Assembly (NCBI GenBank): GCA_017934955.1
Contig: JAGBIO010000008.1
Location: forward strand, 1 to 32,000
Length of the DNA: 32,000 nt
Direction: 5' to 3'
DNA from: Clostridia bacterium
GTDB taxonomy: Bacteria > Bacillota > Clostridia > TANB77 > RGIG9151
Position 1 is the first letter of the stretch. Every line of letters starts with the position of its first letter. The translations under genes were made by a program, and so were the position numbers. The notes beneath the pieces were generated by a model. The model ran no database searches. It saw only the letters and a program-made list of their open reading frames with translations, and was not told where the DNA came from. Of this stretch, positions 2,594 to 32,000 are shown piece by piece.

Positions 2594-2700
2594 TCGTACC
2601 TCTCCCCTATACTTTTCTTCTACTTATTTTTTCGCTAAAGTTATACAAAATCCTTTAGGAAAATATCTTCCAATAATAGCAGTTATATATCCGATTAAAC

Positions 2701-2878
2701 GTTACAAGTCATAATATATATCGGGACGTCGAAGACGCCGTCCTCTACAATGACGGCATAATCCTTGTAGGGACACAATTCATTGTGTCCTAAACCTACC
2801 TTCTGCCAATTTCTCGGACACCATAAATGGTGTCCCTACAAGGATTAAGGCATTATTTACGTACATTTGCATTGTAAT
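2701..2878 (-). mobile_element. MITE copy in inverted orientation that carries a nested GC-rich repeat; right boundary uncertain
   Basis: The TIR-like end GTTACAAGTCAT starts at 2701. The GC-rich repeat lies in reverse orientation at 2722-2749 (CGGGACGTCGAAGACGCCGTCCTCTACA). The palindrome doublet spans 2766-2840: TGTAGGG-GGACACAAT-TC-ATTGTGTCC, a 25-nt spacer, then GGACACCAT-AA-ATGGTGTCC-CTACA. Its inverted flanks extend as AATCCT / AGGATT. The far end is only weakly TIR-like (TGCATTGTAAT ending at 2878), and I found no TSD. Confidence 0.65.
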
Positions 2879-3008
2879 TTATTTACTATAGAACCAATTA
2901 TTGTTAGACTTTTTTTTACCCTATGCATGTCATACTTTGTACATCAAATTTATCCTTTTTCATGATTTTCTCCTACTGTAATTTTTTTAATTAATAACAT
3001 TACATCCT

Positions 3009-3218
3009 CTATGCTTTTCTTTGAACAATCAACCCATATAGCATCGTATGTAACGTTTGACGGCACAATTCGTTATGTTCTTCCATCTGTCGCGCCTCAT
3101 AACCGCCATTTTTCAAGTACGCATTTACAAAGTCCTCAAACAGCTGAAGCTGGCGGATCGCACTTTGGATACTAACTCCCTCTTGTAATGTTTCCTTTTC
3201 CAAAAAAGCAATAAGCAT
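3009..3218 (-). CDS. Small hypothetical ORF, doubtful
   Basis: 69-aa ORF with no recognisable motif. The purine tract GAAAGG abuts the ATG with no spacing. It lies in a gene-poor patch next to a MITE and may be a gene remnant or non-coding. Confidence 0.25.
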   Translation of the reverse strand: MLIAFLEKETLQEGVSIQSAIRQLQLFEDFVNAYLKNGGYEARQMEEHNELCRQTLHTMLYGLIVQRKA

Positions 3219-3272
3219 CCTTTCATTCAGTTCGTCAAAAGAAGCACGGCAAACTGCGATTCTTTCTTTTAG

Positions 3273-3890
3273 GTGCGGTTGCTAATTCACTACGTTATCA
3301 CAAAAAAGGCGTTGATGGAAAAAGCACTTGGGCAAGCGGGATACGGATGGATTCGCTTCTCACTGAATAAAGACGGTACCGAAATCATCGCTTCTGCCCC
3401 TTTGGGTAAATCTCTTGAAGAATGTGTTACTGCAATTAATGAAAGTTTTCGTTTAGGTAATGAAATTCTATCTCAAATTCTTACAGACAATATGACGGAT
3501 CTTGAAAAAATACAGGCAGCTTATCGTTATATTACGGAAAATGTTACCTATGATTTCCGCTATTATACAGATCACAGTAATATGCCTTATGAATCAATGG
3601 TAGCATTAGGTGCTTTACAAGATAATCTTGCCATCTGCGGCGGATATGCACAAAGTTTTGAAGCACTACTGGATATGCTGCAAATCGAAAATTATACAGT
3701 ATCCGGTAAATCTCATAGAGAAAACCATATGTGGAATTATGTTGTGTTGGATGGGAAAGGATACTATTGTGATCCTACCGCTGATCATGGCGGAAGAAAT
3801 AACTATTTTATGCTGTCGGAGAAAGAAATAACAGCTAACAGGGGATATTCATGGGATTCTTCCTTCCTGAAAAAAATCTCCGAAAAATAA
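3273..3890 (+). CDS. Transglutaminase-like cysteine-protease domain protein, possibly N-terminally truncated
   Basis: The Cys-His-Asp core is CGGYAQSFEALL, HMWNYVVL and YYCDPT. The ORF opens with GTG at 3273 directly after an in-frame TAG. ATG 3315 (MEKALG, with AAGG 6 nt upstream) is an alternative start. There is no signal peptide. Confidence 0.7.
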   Translation: MRLLIHYVITKKALMEKALGQAGYGWIRFSLNKDGTEIIASAPLGKSLEECVTAINESFRLGNEILSQILTDNMTDLEKIQAAYRYITENVTYDFRYYTDHSNMPYESMVALGALQDNLAICGGYAQSFEALLDMLQIENYTVSGKSHRENHMWNYVVLDGKGYYCDPTADHGGRNNYFMLSEKEITANRGYSWDSSFLKKISEK

Positions 3891-4006
3891 ATAAAATGAA
3901 CATTATCTGCGATACATTTGACAAAAATTGATTGTAATGCCTAATGTATCGCAGTAATCAGAATGGTGAGGGAAATAACGAAAATTACTTTTATCCAATC
4001 AATCAT

Positions 4007-4129
4007 TTTACAGAAGACTTCTATGATGATGCTACAAACGTTGTAGGGACAGCATTTATGCTGTCCACAGAAAAGGCAGAATTTAATAGTCCGATTCTTA
4101 ACTTAAGGACATTGAGTCTGATCTGTAAC
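4007..4129 (+). mobile_element. Decayed MITE copy
   Basis: The left end is TTTACAGAAG (first base G to T) at 4007. An intact left palindrome TGTAGGG-GGACAGCAT-TT-ATGCTGTCC spans 4042-4066. The family spacer ACAGAAAAGGCAGAATT spans 4067-4083. The second hairpin has eroded (AATAGTCCG). The right TIR TCTGATCTGTAAC ends at 4129. There is no clear TSD. Confidence 0.6.
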
Positions 4130-4152
4130 TAATAGGAAACGTCAAACATACT

Positions 4153-6649: not shown

Positions 6650-6803
6650 GTTACAAGTAATACTATATCTCCTATAATACCGGTACACCCATTGTACGGA
6701 CAGCATTCATGCTGTCCTGCCTTTTTGATTTTTCCATGGACAGCATAAATGCTGTCCCTACACTATTTGTGCCATTTTTATAATTTTAAGTCTGAACTAT
6801 AAC
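6650..6803 (+). mobile_element. 154-bp MITE with a palindrome-doublet core
   Basis: The left TIR is GTTACAAGTAATAC (6650-). The right TIR is the reverse complement of ..TCTGAACTATAAC (ending 6803), which reads GTTATAGTTCAGA. The core doublet spans 6693-6762: TGTACGG-GGACAGCAT-TC-ATGCTGTCC, a 20-nt spacer, then GGACAGCAT-AA-ATGCTGTCC-CTACA. Its length equals that of the 17293-17446 copy. The flanks gACGAtGg and aACGAgGt look like a decayed TSD. Confidence 0.85.
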
Positions 6804-14423: not shown

Positions 14424-14456
14424 TGGCATAACTCCTTTCTTTTGTATTATATTTGC

Positions 14457-14636
14457 GGACACAATAAATTGTGTCCCTACGTTAATTGTGCCTCTTCCTT
14501 CCGTACGGACAGCATTCATGCTGTCCACACGTTAATTGTGCCTCTATCCTTCTGTACGGACAGCATTCATGCTGTCCACACGTTAATTGTGCTTCTATCC
14601 TTCTGTACGGACAGCATTTATGCTGTCCACTCTACA
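14457..14636 (+). repeat. Tandem array of 3.5 units (50-51-bp period) of palindrome plus constant spacer
   Basis: The hairpins are GGACACAAT-AA-ATTGTGTCC (14457-14476) and GGACAGCAT-TC-ATGCTGTCC (14507-14526 and 14558-14577). A fourth, GGACAGCAT-TT-ATGCTGTCC, lies at 14609-14628. The spacers are near-identical (ACACGTTAATTGTGCCTCTATCCTTCTGTAC). Confidence 0.95.
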
Positions 14637-14660
14637 AAATCCGCCAATTTTCTCCCTCAA

Positions 14661-16343: not shown

Positions 16344-17270
16344 ATGGAAGTTATTCTTATTATTTTATTAATCGCAGCCGTAATTATCGCTTTTAGCAGT
16401 ATCGTTACGGTGCACCAAAGTGAAGTTTGTATTATAGAAAGATTCGGAAAATACCACAAGTTAGCACATGCAGGACTGAACTTTATATGTCCGTTCGTTG
16501 ACAAAATTCATCACAGAGTTGATTTACGTCAACAAACAATGGATGTACCGCCACAAGGCGTTATTACAAAAGATAACGTTACAATTACAATCGACACCGT
16601 TGTATTCTATCAAATTATGGATCCCTATAAAGCGGTTTATGAAATTAACAATTTAAGAGCCGGTATTTCTTACTTAGCTATCACTACCATTCGTGATATT
16701 ATCGGTAAAATGGAACTCGACAGCACCTTTAGTTCCAGAGATGTTATTAATACCCAACTTCGTGATATCTTAGACGAAGCAACCGATAAATGGGGCTGTA
16801 AAGTCGATCGTGTGGAAGTAAAAGATATTCGTCCGCCGGCAGATATCCGTGATGCCATGGAAAAGCAAATGAACGCAGAAAGAAATAAAAGAGCTGTTAT
16901 CTTAGAAGCCGAAGGTGAAAGACAAAGTGCCATCACTCGTGCGGAAGGTGAAAAAGAGGCTGCAATTTTAAGAGCAGAAGCTCAAAAACAATCGAATATT
17001 CGTCTTGCTGAAGGTGTAAAAGAAGCAAAAATCTTAGAAGCAACCGGTGAAGCCGATGCGATCCGTCAAATTGCCGAAGCAAAAGCAAAAGAAGTAGAAT
17101 TGGTTTATGACGCTATTATGAATGCAAAACCAAACGATAAATTAATTGCGATTAAGTCACTCGAAGCGCTGGAAAAAGTCGCTGACGGTCAAGCAAATAA
17201 AGTATTTATCCCATTCGACGCAACCCAAACCCTCGCTTCTGTTTCTGCCATGTTCGAAGCAAAAAATTAA
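16344..17270 (+). CDS. SPFH/band-7 (stomatin-like) protein
   Basis: 308 aa with an N-terminal TM helix, an SPFH core (VPPQGVITKDNV...VEVKDIRPP) and a C-terminal Ala/Glu-rich coiled coil. SD AAAGGAGGAG. Confidence 0.93.
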   Translation: MEVILIILLIAAVIIAFSSIVTVHQSEVCIIERFGKYHKLAHAGLNFICPFVDKIHHRVDLRQQTMDVPPQGVITKDNVTITIDTVVFYQIMDPYKAVYEINNLRAGISYLAITTIRDIIGKMELDSTFSSRDVINTQLRDILDEATDKWGCKVDRVEVKDIRPPADIRDAMEKQMNAERNKRAVILEAEGERQSAITRAEGEKEAAILRAEAQKQSNIRLAEGVKEAKILEATGEADAIRQIAEAKAKEVELVYDAIMNAKPNDKLIAIKSLEALEKVADGQANKVFIPFDATQTLASVSAMFEAKN

Positions 17271-17292
17271 TTCTTGATATCAAACCTTTTTC

Positions 17293-17446
17293 GTTACAGC
17301 TCAAACTATATCGTCCTACAACGATGGTGCAACCATTGTAGGGACAGCATTTATGCTGTCCTGCTTTCTGCTTTTTCTGTGGACAGCATGAATGCTGTCC
17401 CTACAGCGTTTGTGCCTTCTCTATAAATTTGGTTCTGACTTGTAAC
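17293..17446 (+). mobile_element. 154-bp MITE with TIRs and a perfect 8-bp TSD
   Basis: The left TIR is GTTACAGCTCAAAC (17293-). The right TIR reads GTTACAAGTCAGAAC as the reverse complement of the end at 17446. The core doublet at 17337-17405 is TGTAGGG-GGACAGCAT-TT-ATGCTGTCC, a 19-nt spacer, then GGACAGCAT-GA-ATGCTGTCC-CTACA. Direct repeats CCTTTTTC lie at 17285-17292 and 17447-17454. Confidence 0.93.
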
Positions 17447-17475
17447 CCTTTTTCTACAAAAAAGGATCAGAATCA

Positions 17476-17533: not shown

Positions 17534-17776
17534 ATGAAATCAACCGGTATTGTAAGAAAAGTAGATGAATTAGGTCGTGTTGTTCTCCCTATCGAGTTAA
17601 GACGTAATCTCGATATCGAAGAAAAAGATGCTTTGGAAATTTATGTAGATGGAAATTCCGTAATCTTAAAGAAATATGAGCCGGATTGTATCTTCTGCGG
17701 AACAGCAAAAGATGTAACCACCTATAAAGGAAAAAATATTTGTGCAAACTGCATGAATGAATTAAAAAAAGCATGA
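17534..17776 (+). CDS. abrB: AbrB-family transition-state regulator
   Basis: 80 aa. The N-terminus MKSTGIVRKVDELGRVVLPIELRR is the SpoVT/AbrB swapped-hairpin DNA-binding domain. SD AAGGAGG. Confidence 0.93.
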   Translation: MKSTGIVRKVDELGRVVLPIELRRNLDIEEKDALEIYVDGNSVILKKYEPDCIFCGTAKDVTTYKGKNICANCMNELKKA

Positions 17777-17830
17777 AAAGGTACAAAAAAAGTGTTTTGC
17801 GTAGGCAAAACACTTTTTTTGTACCTTTTT
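17776..17830. terminator. Bidirectional intrinsic terminator between convergent abrB and the yycI-like gene
   Basis: A 25-bp stem AAAAGGTACAAAAAAAGTGTTTTGC, loop GTAG, then GCAAAACACTTTTTTTGTACCTTTT. U-tracts are available on both strands. Confidence 0.85.
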
Positions 17831-20313: not shown

Positions 20314-20901
20314 TCAATTAAAATACCGAAAAAAATCATCAAAAGTCTTAAAATCACCAATTGTATCATTTAACGATTGCATAAACAAACTTAAAAATAC
20401 CCCAACTGCAATCGCACCAATTAAAATTACCAGTGCCACCATAATCCACTTTTTCGAAGAAACCAATTCTTCAAAAGAAATAAACTTACTCTTTTTCTTC
20501 TCCTCAAAATATCCCTCTTCATTATACGGTGTATAATTCGCCCGCGCATAACCATTTCTGTCGTAATAAGTTCCCGTACGATTTTGATGATACTTCACGT
20601 TTCTCATCATATCATTATACGTCTTATAAGGATTCGATTCCGTCTCACTTCGGCTTTCCTTCCGGTGATGTTCCACCGATTCTTCCGCTTTAATCCCCTC
20701 CGCCACGTCATAAGACTTTCTTAACTCCACATTCGAAAGCACGTCATAAGCACGATTAATCTCCTGCATCCTCTCTTCCGCAAAAGACTTGTCCCCTTTA
20801 TAAGTATCCGGATGATACTTCTTCGCAAGCGCTCGATACGCCTTTTTTATCTCACTCTGTGACGCCGTCGGTTTTACACTTAACACCTCATAATGATTCA
20901 A
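20314..20901 (-). CDS. J-domain (DnaJ-like) membrane protein
   Basis: J-domain [35 protein letters not shown] with the HPD tripeptide, and a C-terminal TM helix [22 protein letters not shown]. The start is TTG 20901, 7 nt after GAAGGAG. The ORF-track ORF (ending at 21087) reads through the tRNA and its terminator. Confidence 0.85.
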
Positions 20902-20926
20902 AAGAATCACTCCTTCATGCAATAAC

Positions 20927-20957
20927 GAAAAAGCACTTGCGTTCGCAAGTGCTTTTT
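20927..20957 (-). terminator. Intrinsic terminator after tRNA-Leu
   Basis: Minus strand: AGCACTTGCG-AA-CGCAAGTGCT followed by TTTT. It begins 7 nt after the tRNA CCA end. Confidence 0.8.
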
Positions 20958-20963
20958 CTCCTT

Positions 20964-21048
20964 TGGTGCCGCTGGCCGGAGTCGAACCGGCACTCCTCTC
21001 GGAACTTGATTTTGAGTCAAGCACGTCTGCCAATTCCATCACAGCGGC
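20964..21048 (-). tRNA. tRNA-Leu(CAA), type II, with encoded CCA
   Basis: 85 nt: GCCGCTGTGATGGAATTGGCAGACGTGCTTGACTCAAAATCAAGTTCCGAGAGGAGTGCCGGTTCGACTCCGGCCAGCGGCACCA. The acceptor stem is GCCGCTG/CAGCGGC. The anticodon stem is CTTGA/TCAAG with loop CT-CAA-AA. It has a long variable arm and the T-arm GCCGG-TTCGACT-CCGGC. Confidence 0.95.
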
Positions 21049-21058
21049 AAGTGAATTT

Positions 21059-21087
21059 AGTATACCGAAAAAATAAAAAAAAATCAA
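21059..21087 (-). promoter_or_regulatory. Promoter of tRNA-Leu
   Basis: Minus strand: TTGATT (21087-21082), a 17-nt spacer, TATACT (21064-21059). The tRNA 5' end lies 10 nt downstream. Confidence 0.7.
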
Positions 21088-25267: not shown

Positions 25268-25297
25268 ATCCTACTAATCGCTTCTTTATAAAGTAAT

Positions 25298-25505
25298 GTT
25301 ACAGGTCAAACTATAATCTTGTATCTTTCAAAAAATATCGTCAGAATGTAGCTTGTAGGGACACAATTCATTGTGTCCTAATCTAATGTCAGGCTATTTC
25401 GCGGACACAATAAATTGTGTCCCTACAACGTTTGTACCGTCATCGTAGGGGACGGCGTCCCTGACATCCCGATATATTTACAACAATTTTACTCTGAACT
25501 GTAAC
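25298..25505 (+). mobile_element. 208-bp MITE (doublet core plus nested GC-rich repeat) with a perfect 8-bp TSD
   Basis: The left TIR is GTTACAGGTCAAACTATAAT (25298-). The right TIR reads GTTACAGTTCAGAGTAAAAT as the reverse complement of the end at 25505. The doublet spans 25354-25427 and the REP-B copy GTAGGGGACGGCGTCCCTGACATCCCG spans 25445-25471. Direct repeats AAAGTAAT lie at 25290-25297 and 25506-25513. Confidence 0.93.
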
Positions 25506-25520
25506 AAAGTAATTCATTAA

Positions 25521-30580: not shown

Positions 30581-30676
30581 ACTCTCATCCTTTCAAAAAA
30601 GATTACTCTGTTTCATTTTATTATAGATGCAGAAAGTATATTCTACACTCTTACAATCTGCCCATTTGTATATTTT

Positions 30677-30704
30677 TGTAGGGGACGGCGTCCTCGACGT
30701 CCCG
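30677..30704 (+). repeat. GC-rich repeat (REP-B), consensus copy
   Basis: TGTAGGGGACGGCGTCCTCGACGTCCCG. It has internal complementarity (GGGACG...CGTCCC and GGACG-G-CGTCC). It abuts the accC stop codon (30705-30707) with no gap. Confidence 0.9.
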
Positions 30705-32000
30705 CTATTCTGCTTTCCTCTCGTTCAAAAAATTCGTTCCATATTTTCCGCTCCTAAATTCCGCTTCATCCAAAAGTTCCGCCTGAAAATCAATATTGGT
30801 ATCAATCCCCTCAATCACAAGCTCACATAAAGCCGCCTTCATCTTACGAATCGCTTCGCTTCTTGAAGGTGCAGAAACAATCAGTTTTCCAATCATAGAG
30901 TCATAAAACGGCGGCACAAAATAATCTTGATACAACGCCGTATCAAATCTCACCTTTGGTCCACCCGGAACGTGTAATAACGTAATATTTCCGGCATTCG
31001 GCATAAAATTCTTTTCCGGATTCTCCGCATTGATACGACACTCAATCGCATGTCCCTTTAACGAAATATCTTTCTGTTTAAAATCAATCGGAACTCCTGC
31101 CGCAATACGAATCTGCCATTTTACAAGGTCAATTCCCGTAATAATTTCCGTTACAGGATGTTCTACCTGCAATCTTGTATTCATCTCCATAAAATAAAAG
31201 TTATTATCTTGGTCCAATAAAAACTCAATGGTACCGGCATTTGTATAGTTAACAGCCTTAACCGCCTTTACTGCCGCCTCCATCATCTTTTCTCTTACCT
31301 TATCCGAAACCGCCGAGCAAGGACTCTCCTCCAAAACTTTTTGATTCTTTCTTTGCATCGAGCAATCTCTTTCTCCCAAGCATACAACATTTCCGAAGCT
31401 GTCCGCTAAAATCTGCATTTCCACATGCTTTACCGGAAATAAATATTTTTCTAAATATACTTGCCCGTCTCCAAAAGCATTTAACGCTTCAGATGAGGCT
31501 GATAAAAAGGCATTTTGGAAATCTTCCTTCTGTTTTACCAAACGAATTCCTTTTCCTCCGCCACCGGCACGTGCCTTAATCAGTAACGGATAACCGATTT
31601 TATCCGCTTCCTTCATTCCTTGTTGTAACGATTCTACCAAATCGCATCCCGGAATAATCGGAACACCGGCTTTCTTCATGGTTTTTCTCGCCATATCCTT
31701 ATCGCCCATCTTGGTAATCAACTCAGAAGATGGCCCGATAAAGGCAATATGACATTGTGCACACAAATTAGCAAAACGAGCGTTCTCGGATAAAAATCCA
31801 TAACCCGGATGAATTGCATTCGCGCCTGTCGCAACCGCCGCCGCCAAAATTGCAGAAATATTTAAATAACTATCCTTCGCCATTGCAGGACCGATACAAA
31901 CACTCTCATCCGCCAAACTTACATGGAGGGCATCCCGATCCGCCTCAGAATATACCGCAACCGTCGAAATTCCCATTTCTTTACATGCTCTTATAATACG
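30705..32000 (-). CDS. accC: Biotin carboxylase (acetyl-CoA carboxylase), N-terminus beyond the window edge
   Basis: ATP-grasp motifs GGGGKGIRLV and EMNTRLQVEHPVTE. The reading frame stays open upstream of the ORF-track Met (..RIIRACKEMGI..), so the gene continues past 32000. Confidence 0.95.
   Translation of the reverse strand, partial: RIIRACKEMGISTVAVYSEADRDALHVSLADESVCIGPAMAKDSYLNISAILAAAVATGANAIHPGYGFLSENARFANLCAQCHIAFIGPSSELITKMGDKDMARKTMKKAGVPIIPGCDLVESLQQGMKEADKIGYPLLIKARAGGGGKGIRLVKQKEDFQNAFLSASSEALNAFGDGQVYLEKYLFPVKHVEMQILADSFGNVVCLGERDCSMQRKNQKVLEESPCSAVSDKVREKMMEAAVKAVKAVNYTNAGTIEFLLDQDNNFYFMEMNTRLQVEHPVTEIITGIDLVKWQIRIAAGVPIDFKQKDISLKGHAIECRINAENPEKNFMPNAGNITLLHVPGGPKVRFDTALYQDYFVPPFYDSMIGKLIVSAPSRSEAIRKMKAALCELVIEGIDTNIDFQAELLDEAEFRSGKYGTNFLNERKAE

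Follow-up and report, generated by a model that had tools for sequence, protein, structure and literature searches.

The window (the whole 32-kb stretch of DNA that was analysed) carries an SPFH/Band_7 gene at 16344-17270 (+) and an abrB/MazE-fold gene at 17534-17776 (+), and between these two housekeeping genes lies a 154-bp non-coding element, 17293-17446, which ends in GTTACAG...TTGTAAC and is bounded on both sides by the octamer CCTTTTTC. The preliminary description had read this element as a MITE with terminal inverted repeats (TIRs), a perfect 8-bp target-site duplication (TSD) and a palindrome doublet in its core, and every sequence detail was confirmed by direct reading. The repeat is exactly 8 bp long, and the adjoining outer base is unlike on the two sides. 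The CCTTTTTC target lies 14 bp past the SPFH/Band_7 stop codon; the insert, including the right repeat copy, is followed after 21 bp by the -35 box of the abrB-like gene, the promoter of which (TTGACT-17-TATCAT) is a good match. The parts of the element are as follows:

17285-17292, no strand: left copy of the 8-bp repeat CCTTTTTC, matching 17447-17454 at 8/8 positions
17293-17446, + strand: the 154-bp putative MITE, GTTACAG...TTGTAAC, its ends set by the limits of homology with the paralog at 6650-6803
17293-17312, + strand: left TIR, GTTACAGCTCAAAC with subterminal TATATC (nine-termini consensus GTTACARNTCARACTATAAT)
17323-17361, + strand: left REP unit, with a 5' arm, the GTAG head at 17338-17341 and the hairpin GGACAGCAT-TT-ATGCTGTCC
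17362-17380, + strand: T-rich 19-nt spacer between the REP units, read directly in the sequence
17381-17419, - strand: right REP unit, inverted, with the hairpin GGACAGCAT-GA-ATGCTGTCC, CTAC at 17401-17404 and an arm, 82% complementary to 17323-17361
17432-17446, - strand: right TIR (reverse complement GTTACAAGTCAGAAC), from direct reading and comparison of termini
17447-17454, no strand: right copy of CCTTTTTC, read directly in the sequence

The TIRs of this copy taken alone are weak, with six perfect bases followed by about 11/14 matches with one indel, and the match is imperfect inside single copies in general (11/14 to 15/20). Across nine termini from related copies the ends are conserved and yield the consensus GTTACARNTCARAC(TATAAT). 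The core consists of two hairpins, GGACAGCATTTATGCTGTCC (17342-17361) and GGACAGCATGAATGCTGTCC (17381-17400), which lie within inverted 39-nt arms with 82% complementarity; similar T-rich spacers occur in the doublets at 6718-6737 and 105-122. As single-stranded DNA the element folds at -32.8 kcal/mol (z = -8.3) and as RNA at -77.5 kcal/mol (z = -9.3), and its first hairpin with the T-rich tail has a terminator-like score on the + strand. Its longest ORF encodes 50 aa; a stop-free translation of 51 aa that includes this ORF had no relative in the protein collection, and a six-frame chimera of the MITE peptides gave one insignificant match there. No Rfam family matched the element, a local E-value scan returning only chance matches to miRNA-type hairpins, and BLASTN against the plasmid and phage collections detected no similarity.

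The core hairpin is of the REP type written GTAGGGACAGCAT. In the window, 23 hairpins fit the pattern GGACA-NNNN-loop-NNNN-TGTCC, where none is expected by chance, and each is preceded by GTAG or GTAC. They occur in most intergenic regions as singlets, as inverted doublets and as one array, and about 14 of them are not part of a TIR-bounded copy. The array, at 14446-14648 between spoIIIAA and a tRNA-synthetase gene, consists of four hairpins arranged head to tail, the last three at an exact 51-bp (17-codon) period. The longest SpoIIIAA ORF, which at 328 aa equals the L005 and L019 gene calls in length, extends back into this array, and the gene calls differ among assemblies (328, 326 and 325 aa); the SpoIIIAA N-terminus may thus be a spurious extension from the array. 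That ORFs as long as some gene calls run into repeats suggests spurious N-terminal extensions. Other GTAG-type palindrome classes, GTAGGGGACGGCGTCC...GACGTCCCG and GGGCGATTAATAATCGCCCCTAC, were seen at positions 1-60, 2716-2750, 25443-25475 and 30676-30708 of the window; several REP families are thus present in this genome, and the longer MITE copies have one of them in their interior. In addition, a REP hairpin is broken in mid-stem at 225-245 (GGACAGCATTC/GTAGTCGAAACTTCC...), apparently by insertion or recombination.

A profile was built from the two 154-bp copies and run against the repeat loci of the window. Full or near-full matches were found only at the MITE copies, and the remaining repeat loci matched the core alone; the TIR arms (profile positions 1-43 and 120-155) were confined to the MITE copies, and REP units and doublets occurred solo as well. 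The related loci are as follows, the last being an object of comparison and not part of a MITE:

6650-6803, + strand: full-length 154-bp paralog, GTTACAAG...CTATAAC, matching profile positions 1-155 (E = 1e-48)
25290-25513, + strand: 208-bp paralog, GTTACAGG...CTGTAAC, with its TSD; the element itself is 25298-25505 (profile and flank comparison)
2701-2878, + strand: degenerate copy with an intact left TIR, GTTACAAGTCATAA, and a REP doublet, matching profile positions 1-128
4007-4129, - strand: degenerate copy with a consensus TIR at 4116-4129 (reverse complement GTTACAGATCAGAC)
79-152, + strand: naked REP doublet with a similar spacer and without TIR arms, matching profile positions 44-119 only

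The paralog at 6650-6803 is 78-81% identical to 17293-17446, with homology extending from GTTACA to TAAC and flanks that are unrelated; no clean TSD was recognised at its flanks, TGACGATG and AACGAGGT. The 208-bp paralog carries an extra internal hairpin, which is a second REP type, and is flanked by a perfect 8-bp TSD of its own, AAAGTAAT, at 25290-25297 and 25506-25513; its predicted empty junction is TTTATAAAGTAATTCATT. The expectation that other copies would share the TIRs and show a TSD was thereby borne out, this one independently. The two remaining copies have decayed: that at 2701-2878 is decayed at its right end and has no TSD, and that at 4007-4129 has lost one REP and is decayed at its non-TIR end. 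When TSDs were sought at shifted boundaries of the copies at 6650, 2701 and 4007-4129, the best match was 5/8, which is not significant. In total, at least three intact and two decayed copies lie in 32 kb. Furthermore, an independent MAG contig from water-deer caecum (L013) holds a half-copy at its end with the same right end, ...TCTGAATTGTAAC/TCTTTTTT.

A chance origin of the duplications was assessed by counting. Only seven GTTAYA...TRTAAC pairs spaced 100-400 bp apart occur in the 32-kb window, and two of them (17293-17446 and 25298-25505) have flanks that match at 8/8 positions, although random 8-mer flank pairs at such spacing match in full at a frequency of 6.6e-5. By our own arithmetic, the expected joint probability of two such matches among seven pairs is about 1e-7. 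The two duplications, CCTTTTTC and AAAGTAAT, are equal in length (8 bp) and different in sequence. Chance does not explain them.

The orthologous site was examined in relatives. In another lineage (L002-L004), the AbrB-like protein is identical to that of the window and Band_7 is 76% identical; the intergenic region measures 109 bp as against 263 bp in the window and has ...TTAGACACTAACCTTTTCTACAAAACATGG... ahead of the same promoter and leader. A single CCTTTTC and no GTTAC are present at this site. The empty site inferred beforehand, AAACCTTTTTCTACAAAA, was therefore right in its single target and not in its exact sequence, since L002-L004 carry TAACCTTTTCTACAAAAC, which has one T fewer; with one target copy in the relatives, no element lacking a duplication boundary was met at the locus. 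A second outgroup (L080; Band_7 79% and AbrB 84% identical) lacks the element, the two genes being only 71 bp apart. These empty-site lineages are distant (76-79% Band_7 identity). All assemblies of the own lineage that extend to this site carry the insertion (L001, L005, L006, L007, L008, L019 and L020), and among these no presence/absence polymorphism within the species was seen. Moreover, the relatives at 75-80% Band_7 identity showed neither REPs nor MITEs in the approximately 100 kb examined, and the relatives with Band_7 homologues P0009, P0011, P0005 and P0008 had a different synteny and no REP or MITE.

The conserved TIRs, the fixed-length TSD at two sites and the single-copy target in a relative are together the footprint of staggered-cut transposition. 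In such a process, a transposase supplied in trans would recognise the imperfect TIRs of approximately 14-20 bp (consensus GTTACARNTCARAC) and would make an 8-bp staggered cut in the target CCTTTTTC; gap repair would then leave the 8-bp duplication, and the non-autonomous unit would move by cut-or-copy-and-paste. The interior that would be carried is a REP doublet, that is, two inverted GTAG-tagged hairpins with a T-rich spacer, and not IS-derived coding sequence. The transposase would presumably be of the DDE type, an assignment made only from the TIRs and the variable-sequence TSD. An 8-bp TSD is compatible with several IS families, namely IS256, ISL3, IS6, IS66/ISBst12, IS1595, ISAs1 and IS1; none of these is known to have GTTAC among its canonical ends.

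The element at 17293-17446 is, with high probability, a copy of a previously undescribed, non-autonomous MITE family with a REP doublet as its core. It is short and non-coding, has TIRs that are conserved among copies and a TSD of fixed length and variable sequence, occurs in dispersed copies and has an empty orthologous site with one target copy in relatives. Against this reading count the short, imperfect TIRs and the one of three intact copies (6650-6803) that has no recognisable TSD. The lack of a transposase or of an autonomous IS with such ends among the window genes, the uniform presence of the insertion in the assemblies of the species, the distance of the empty-site lineages and the GTTAC termini, which are unlike the ends known for the IS families named above, also weigh against it. 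As an element it is of an ordinary kind, and it is unusual only in its core, a pair of REP hairpins; the MITE consists of TIR arms plus a REP doublet. Because doublets without TIR arms exist, the proposal that the REP doublet is the cargo of a MITE is the best reading. The same armless doublet occurs elsewhere in the genome, and the family thus has the appearance of transposon ends that have captured a REPIN-like doublet between them. The doublets at 79-152 and 173-232, the latter also matching the profile in the core, fit the cargo or two-layer arrangement that had been proposed at the outset. The REPs would then have entered a MITE rather than having been released from MITEs.

The principal competing explanations concern a different transposase, a different history of the hairpins and a different function. 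Under the Y1 explanation, the unit would be a REPIN or PATE, and its transposase a Y1 (HUH) enzyme of the RAYT or IS200/IS605 type, which places single-stranded DNA beside a short target motif; the octamer repeat would be coincidental or part of the target. In agreement with this, every copy begins with GTTAC, which contains TTAC, the target of IS608. Y1 transposition, however, produces no duplication and needs a constant target motif, and the perfect 8-bp duplications found at two copies, CCTTTTTC and AAAGTAAT, are unlike each other. Moreover, with GTTAC as the target, a GTTAC and both copies of CCTTTTTC would be expected at the empty site, whereas the relatives show one CCTTTTC and no GTTAC. 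No Y1 gene was found in the window, nor by a crude motif scan of the ORFs of L009-L016. The core is a textbook GTAG-headed REP doublet by the definition of such repeats (PMC3733652), with GTAG-GGACAGCAT..ATGCTGTCC present twice in inverted orientation, but this architecture is confined to the core, and the 154-bp unit as a whole has an 8-bp TSD and a single-target empty site instead of insertion without target duplication. The constant tetra- or pentanucleotide at the left flank and the lack of TIRs and TSD that mark PATEs are likewise not seen, the flanks CCTTTTTC, AAAGTAAT and TGACGATG being different. The unlike sequences of the two duplications and the lack of GTTAC at the empty site lead us to reject Y1/RAYT insertion, which we regard as very improbable; the earlier suggestion of a mechanism other than Y1/RAYT agrees with both observations.

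It is also conceivable that all of the REP hairpins are debris of the MITE family after loss of the arms, in which case a single mobility system would suffice and no REP/RAYT layer would exist. The copies at 2701-2878 and 4007-4129 have indeed lost an arm or a hairpin, truncated Coxiella QMITE2 copies resemble REPs (PMC10969869), and the relatives that lack the MITE also lack REPs. Yet the approximately 14 of 23 hairpins outside TIR-bounded copies include naked doublets and the 51-bp-period array at 14446-14648, and tandem arrays are not explained by MITE decay; in addition, hairpins with the GTAGGGACA...TGTCCCTAC stem occur without MITE arms in MAG contigs labelled as other phyla. We consider this explanation unlikely, though less so than the other two. 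An immobile, selected structural element (a terminator, an mRNA stabiliser or a regulatory RNA), with the repeat arising by chance in a T-rich spacer, would account for the strong RNA fold, for the terminator-like hairpin and T-rich tail on the + strand and for the location of four of the five copies 7-23 bp past a stop codon. It is scarcely compatible with the absence of an Rfam family, with two 8/8 duplications beyond chance, with the unlike orientation of the copies at 17293 and 6650 to the upstream gene and with two related lineages in which the gene pair and the promoter are conserved and the element is absent, and its probability is accordingly very low. Given the inconstant orientation and the relatives without the element, any terminator or insulator role is secondary; such an effect is possible and would not explain the origin of the element.

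Several known systems are comparable. The MITEs Chunjie (Geobacter uraniireducens), Nezha, the Correia element, RUP and bcr1 are, like this element, small (approximately 100-250 bp), non-coding, AT-rich and fold-back, with TIRs and direct repeats; as in this family, they are intergenic near gene ends and size-variable and leave decayed copies. Chunjie-type elements are closest in form, Chunjie itself measuring 178-235 bp with 21-bp TIRs and 9-bp direct repeats (PMC3184786; PMC10969869). The present family differs from those MITEs by its 8-bp duplication, GTTACAG termini and GTAG-type REP hairpin core. The core resembles REPINs/BIMEs, the REP doublets associated with RAYT transposases, which have two inverted REPs around a short spacer and GTAG-head hairpins and also occur as singlets or clusters in intergenic regions; the unit as a whole is distinguished from them by extra TIR arms of approximately 40 bp and the 8-bp TSD, and no RAYT lies in the window. 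We know of no report of a TSD-forming REPIN with TIR arms. A GTAG head with a hairpin is the defining architecture of GTAG-tagged REPs (PMC3733652), and REPINs/BIMEs are arranged as such an inverted doublet around a spacer (PMC3337134). A blurred border between MITEs and REPs has a precedent in Coxiella QMITE2, truncated copies of which are REP-like (PMC10969869), and a mosaic construction has one in Pseudomonas, where TIRs are degenerate REP units joined to unrelated stem-loops in hundreds of copies. In those cases, however, the resemblance to REPs arises by truncation, or mosaics flank a tyrosine-transposase gene, whereas here intact REP doublets lie in a TSD-forming element. The PATEs derived from IS200/IS605 are likewise short, non-coding and hairpin-rich; unlike this element, they have no TIRs or TSD and a fixed target motif.

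The family is new, and the MITE itself is a known kind. When the TIR and REP sequences were searched as strings in the literature, the only matches were unrelated primers; searches on RAYT/REPIN in Firmicutes and on 8-bp-TSD MITEs in Clostridia found nothing, and no description of a TSD-forming MITE that contains intact GTAG-REP doublets was found. The 2013 survey does not list GTAG REPs for Firmicutes (PMC3733652), and neither that GTAG-REP survey nor the 2024 MITE review mentions such an element in this Clostridia group. The locus thus provides a checkable MITE insertion, with TIRs, TSD and empty site, in an uncultured gut Clostridia bacterium (a ruminant gut being inferred from sample and contig names). 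Furthermore, the family is a concrete case for the exchange of parts between REP/REPIN sequences and TIR transposons, and for the question whether more than one transposition mechanism can disperse REP-like repeats.

No transposase of any kind, RAYT, Y1 gene or autonomous IS with matching ends was present among the window genes (Pfam listings, 32 kb), and the crude HUH...Y motif scan of ORFs in loci L009-L016 found none. The sequence of the own genome covered was the 32 kb plus short related contigs, and the genome and metagenome scans covered the TIR plus REP pattern only. In the genome_contigs collection, the pattern GTTACA, 30-60 nt, GTAG-REP gave five matches, one of which was the true half-copy on L013; the others were discarded as REP hairpins with a chance GTTACA. 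The TIR-plus-REP pattern gave three matches in metagenome_contigs, none of them a MITE, and no match in viral_contigs. A further 47 single TIR-only matches in viral_contigs, without an inverted partner or a REP, were attributed to chance.

MAG contigs labelled as other phyla also contain hairpins that share the GTAG head and the lower stem, GTAGGGACA....TGTCCCTAC, and have no MITE arms. They lie at L011 3147-3219, L010 2286-2312 (the same as L015 1007-1033), L009 1028-1056, L012 5553-5610, L014 2576-2665 and L016 2610-2638. The contig labels are Muribaculaceae, Defluviitaleaceae, Latescibacterota and Chloroflexota, plus a high-GC metagenome contig. The apical 4 bp vary and yet stay complementary (GCAT, CAAT, CCAT, GAAT). 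A REP type common to several phyla would be unusual, and mis-binning is possible. If the recurrence of GTAGGGACA...TGTCCCTAC in several phyla is true, it would point to a horizontally spreading REP system.

A possible TIR-bounded composite of 1448 bp was noted at 2682-4129 (region 2674-4137). Its left end, GTTATATATCCGATTAAAC, agrees with the reverse complement of the right arm, GTTACAGATCAGACTCAAT, at 13/19 positions, and its flanks, TAATAGCA and TAATAGGA, agree at 7/8; it contains a transglutaminase-core gene (3273-3890, +) and a 69-aa ORF (3009-3218, -). The composite could be a gene mobilised by MITE ends, or it could be chance (about 0.03 by estimate). Tentatively, a wider proposal may be drawn, which we hold to be possible and rather doubtful: a REPIN-like REP doublet would have been captured between the ends of a TSD-generating, presumably DDE transposon, these ends may mobilise the gene at 2682-4129 as well, and REPs would spread horizontally. 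If this were true, sequences presumed to depend on RAYT (HUH) enzymes would be dispersed by a second, unrelated transposition chemistry.

The repeats also affect assembly, since REP and MITE repeats break short-read assemblies at their own sites; the contigs L007, L008, L013, L017 and L018 end inside REP or MITE copies. Apart from these repeats, a 28-nt perfectly complementary pair was found at 336-363 and 17786-17813 (GTGTTTTGCCTACGCAAAACACTTTTTT and its reverse complement). The two sequences are bidirectional terminator-like hairpins located after two unrelated genes 17 kb apart, and the relative L002 has a different terminator after abrB; the pair may represent a third small repeat family. 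The sole Rfam match in the window was a tRNA gene (RF00005, 20967-21048, - strand, 52.6 bits), and the 257-aa ORF that overlaps it (20314-21087, - strand) is probably over-extended.
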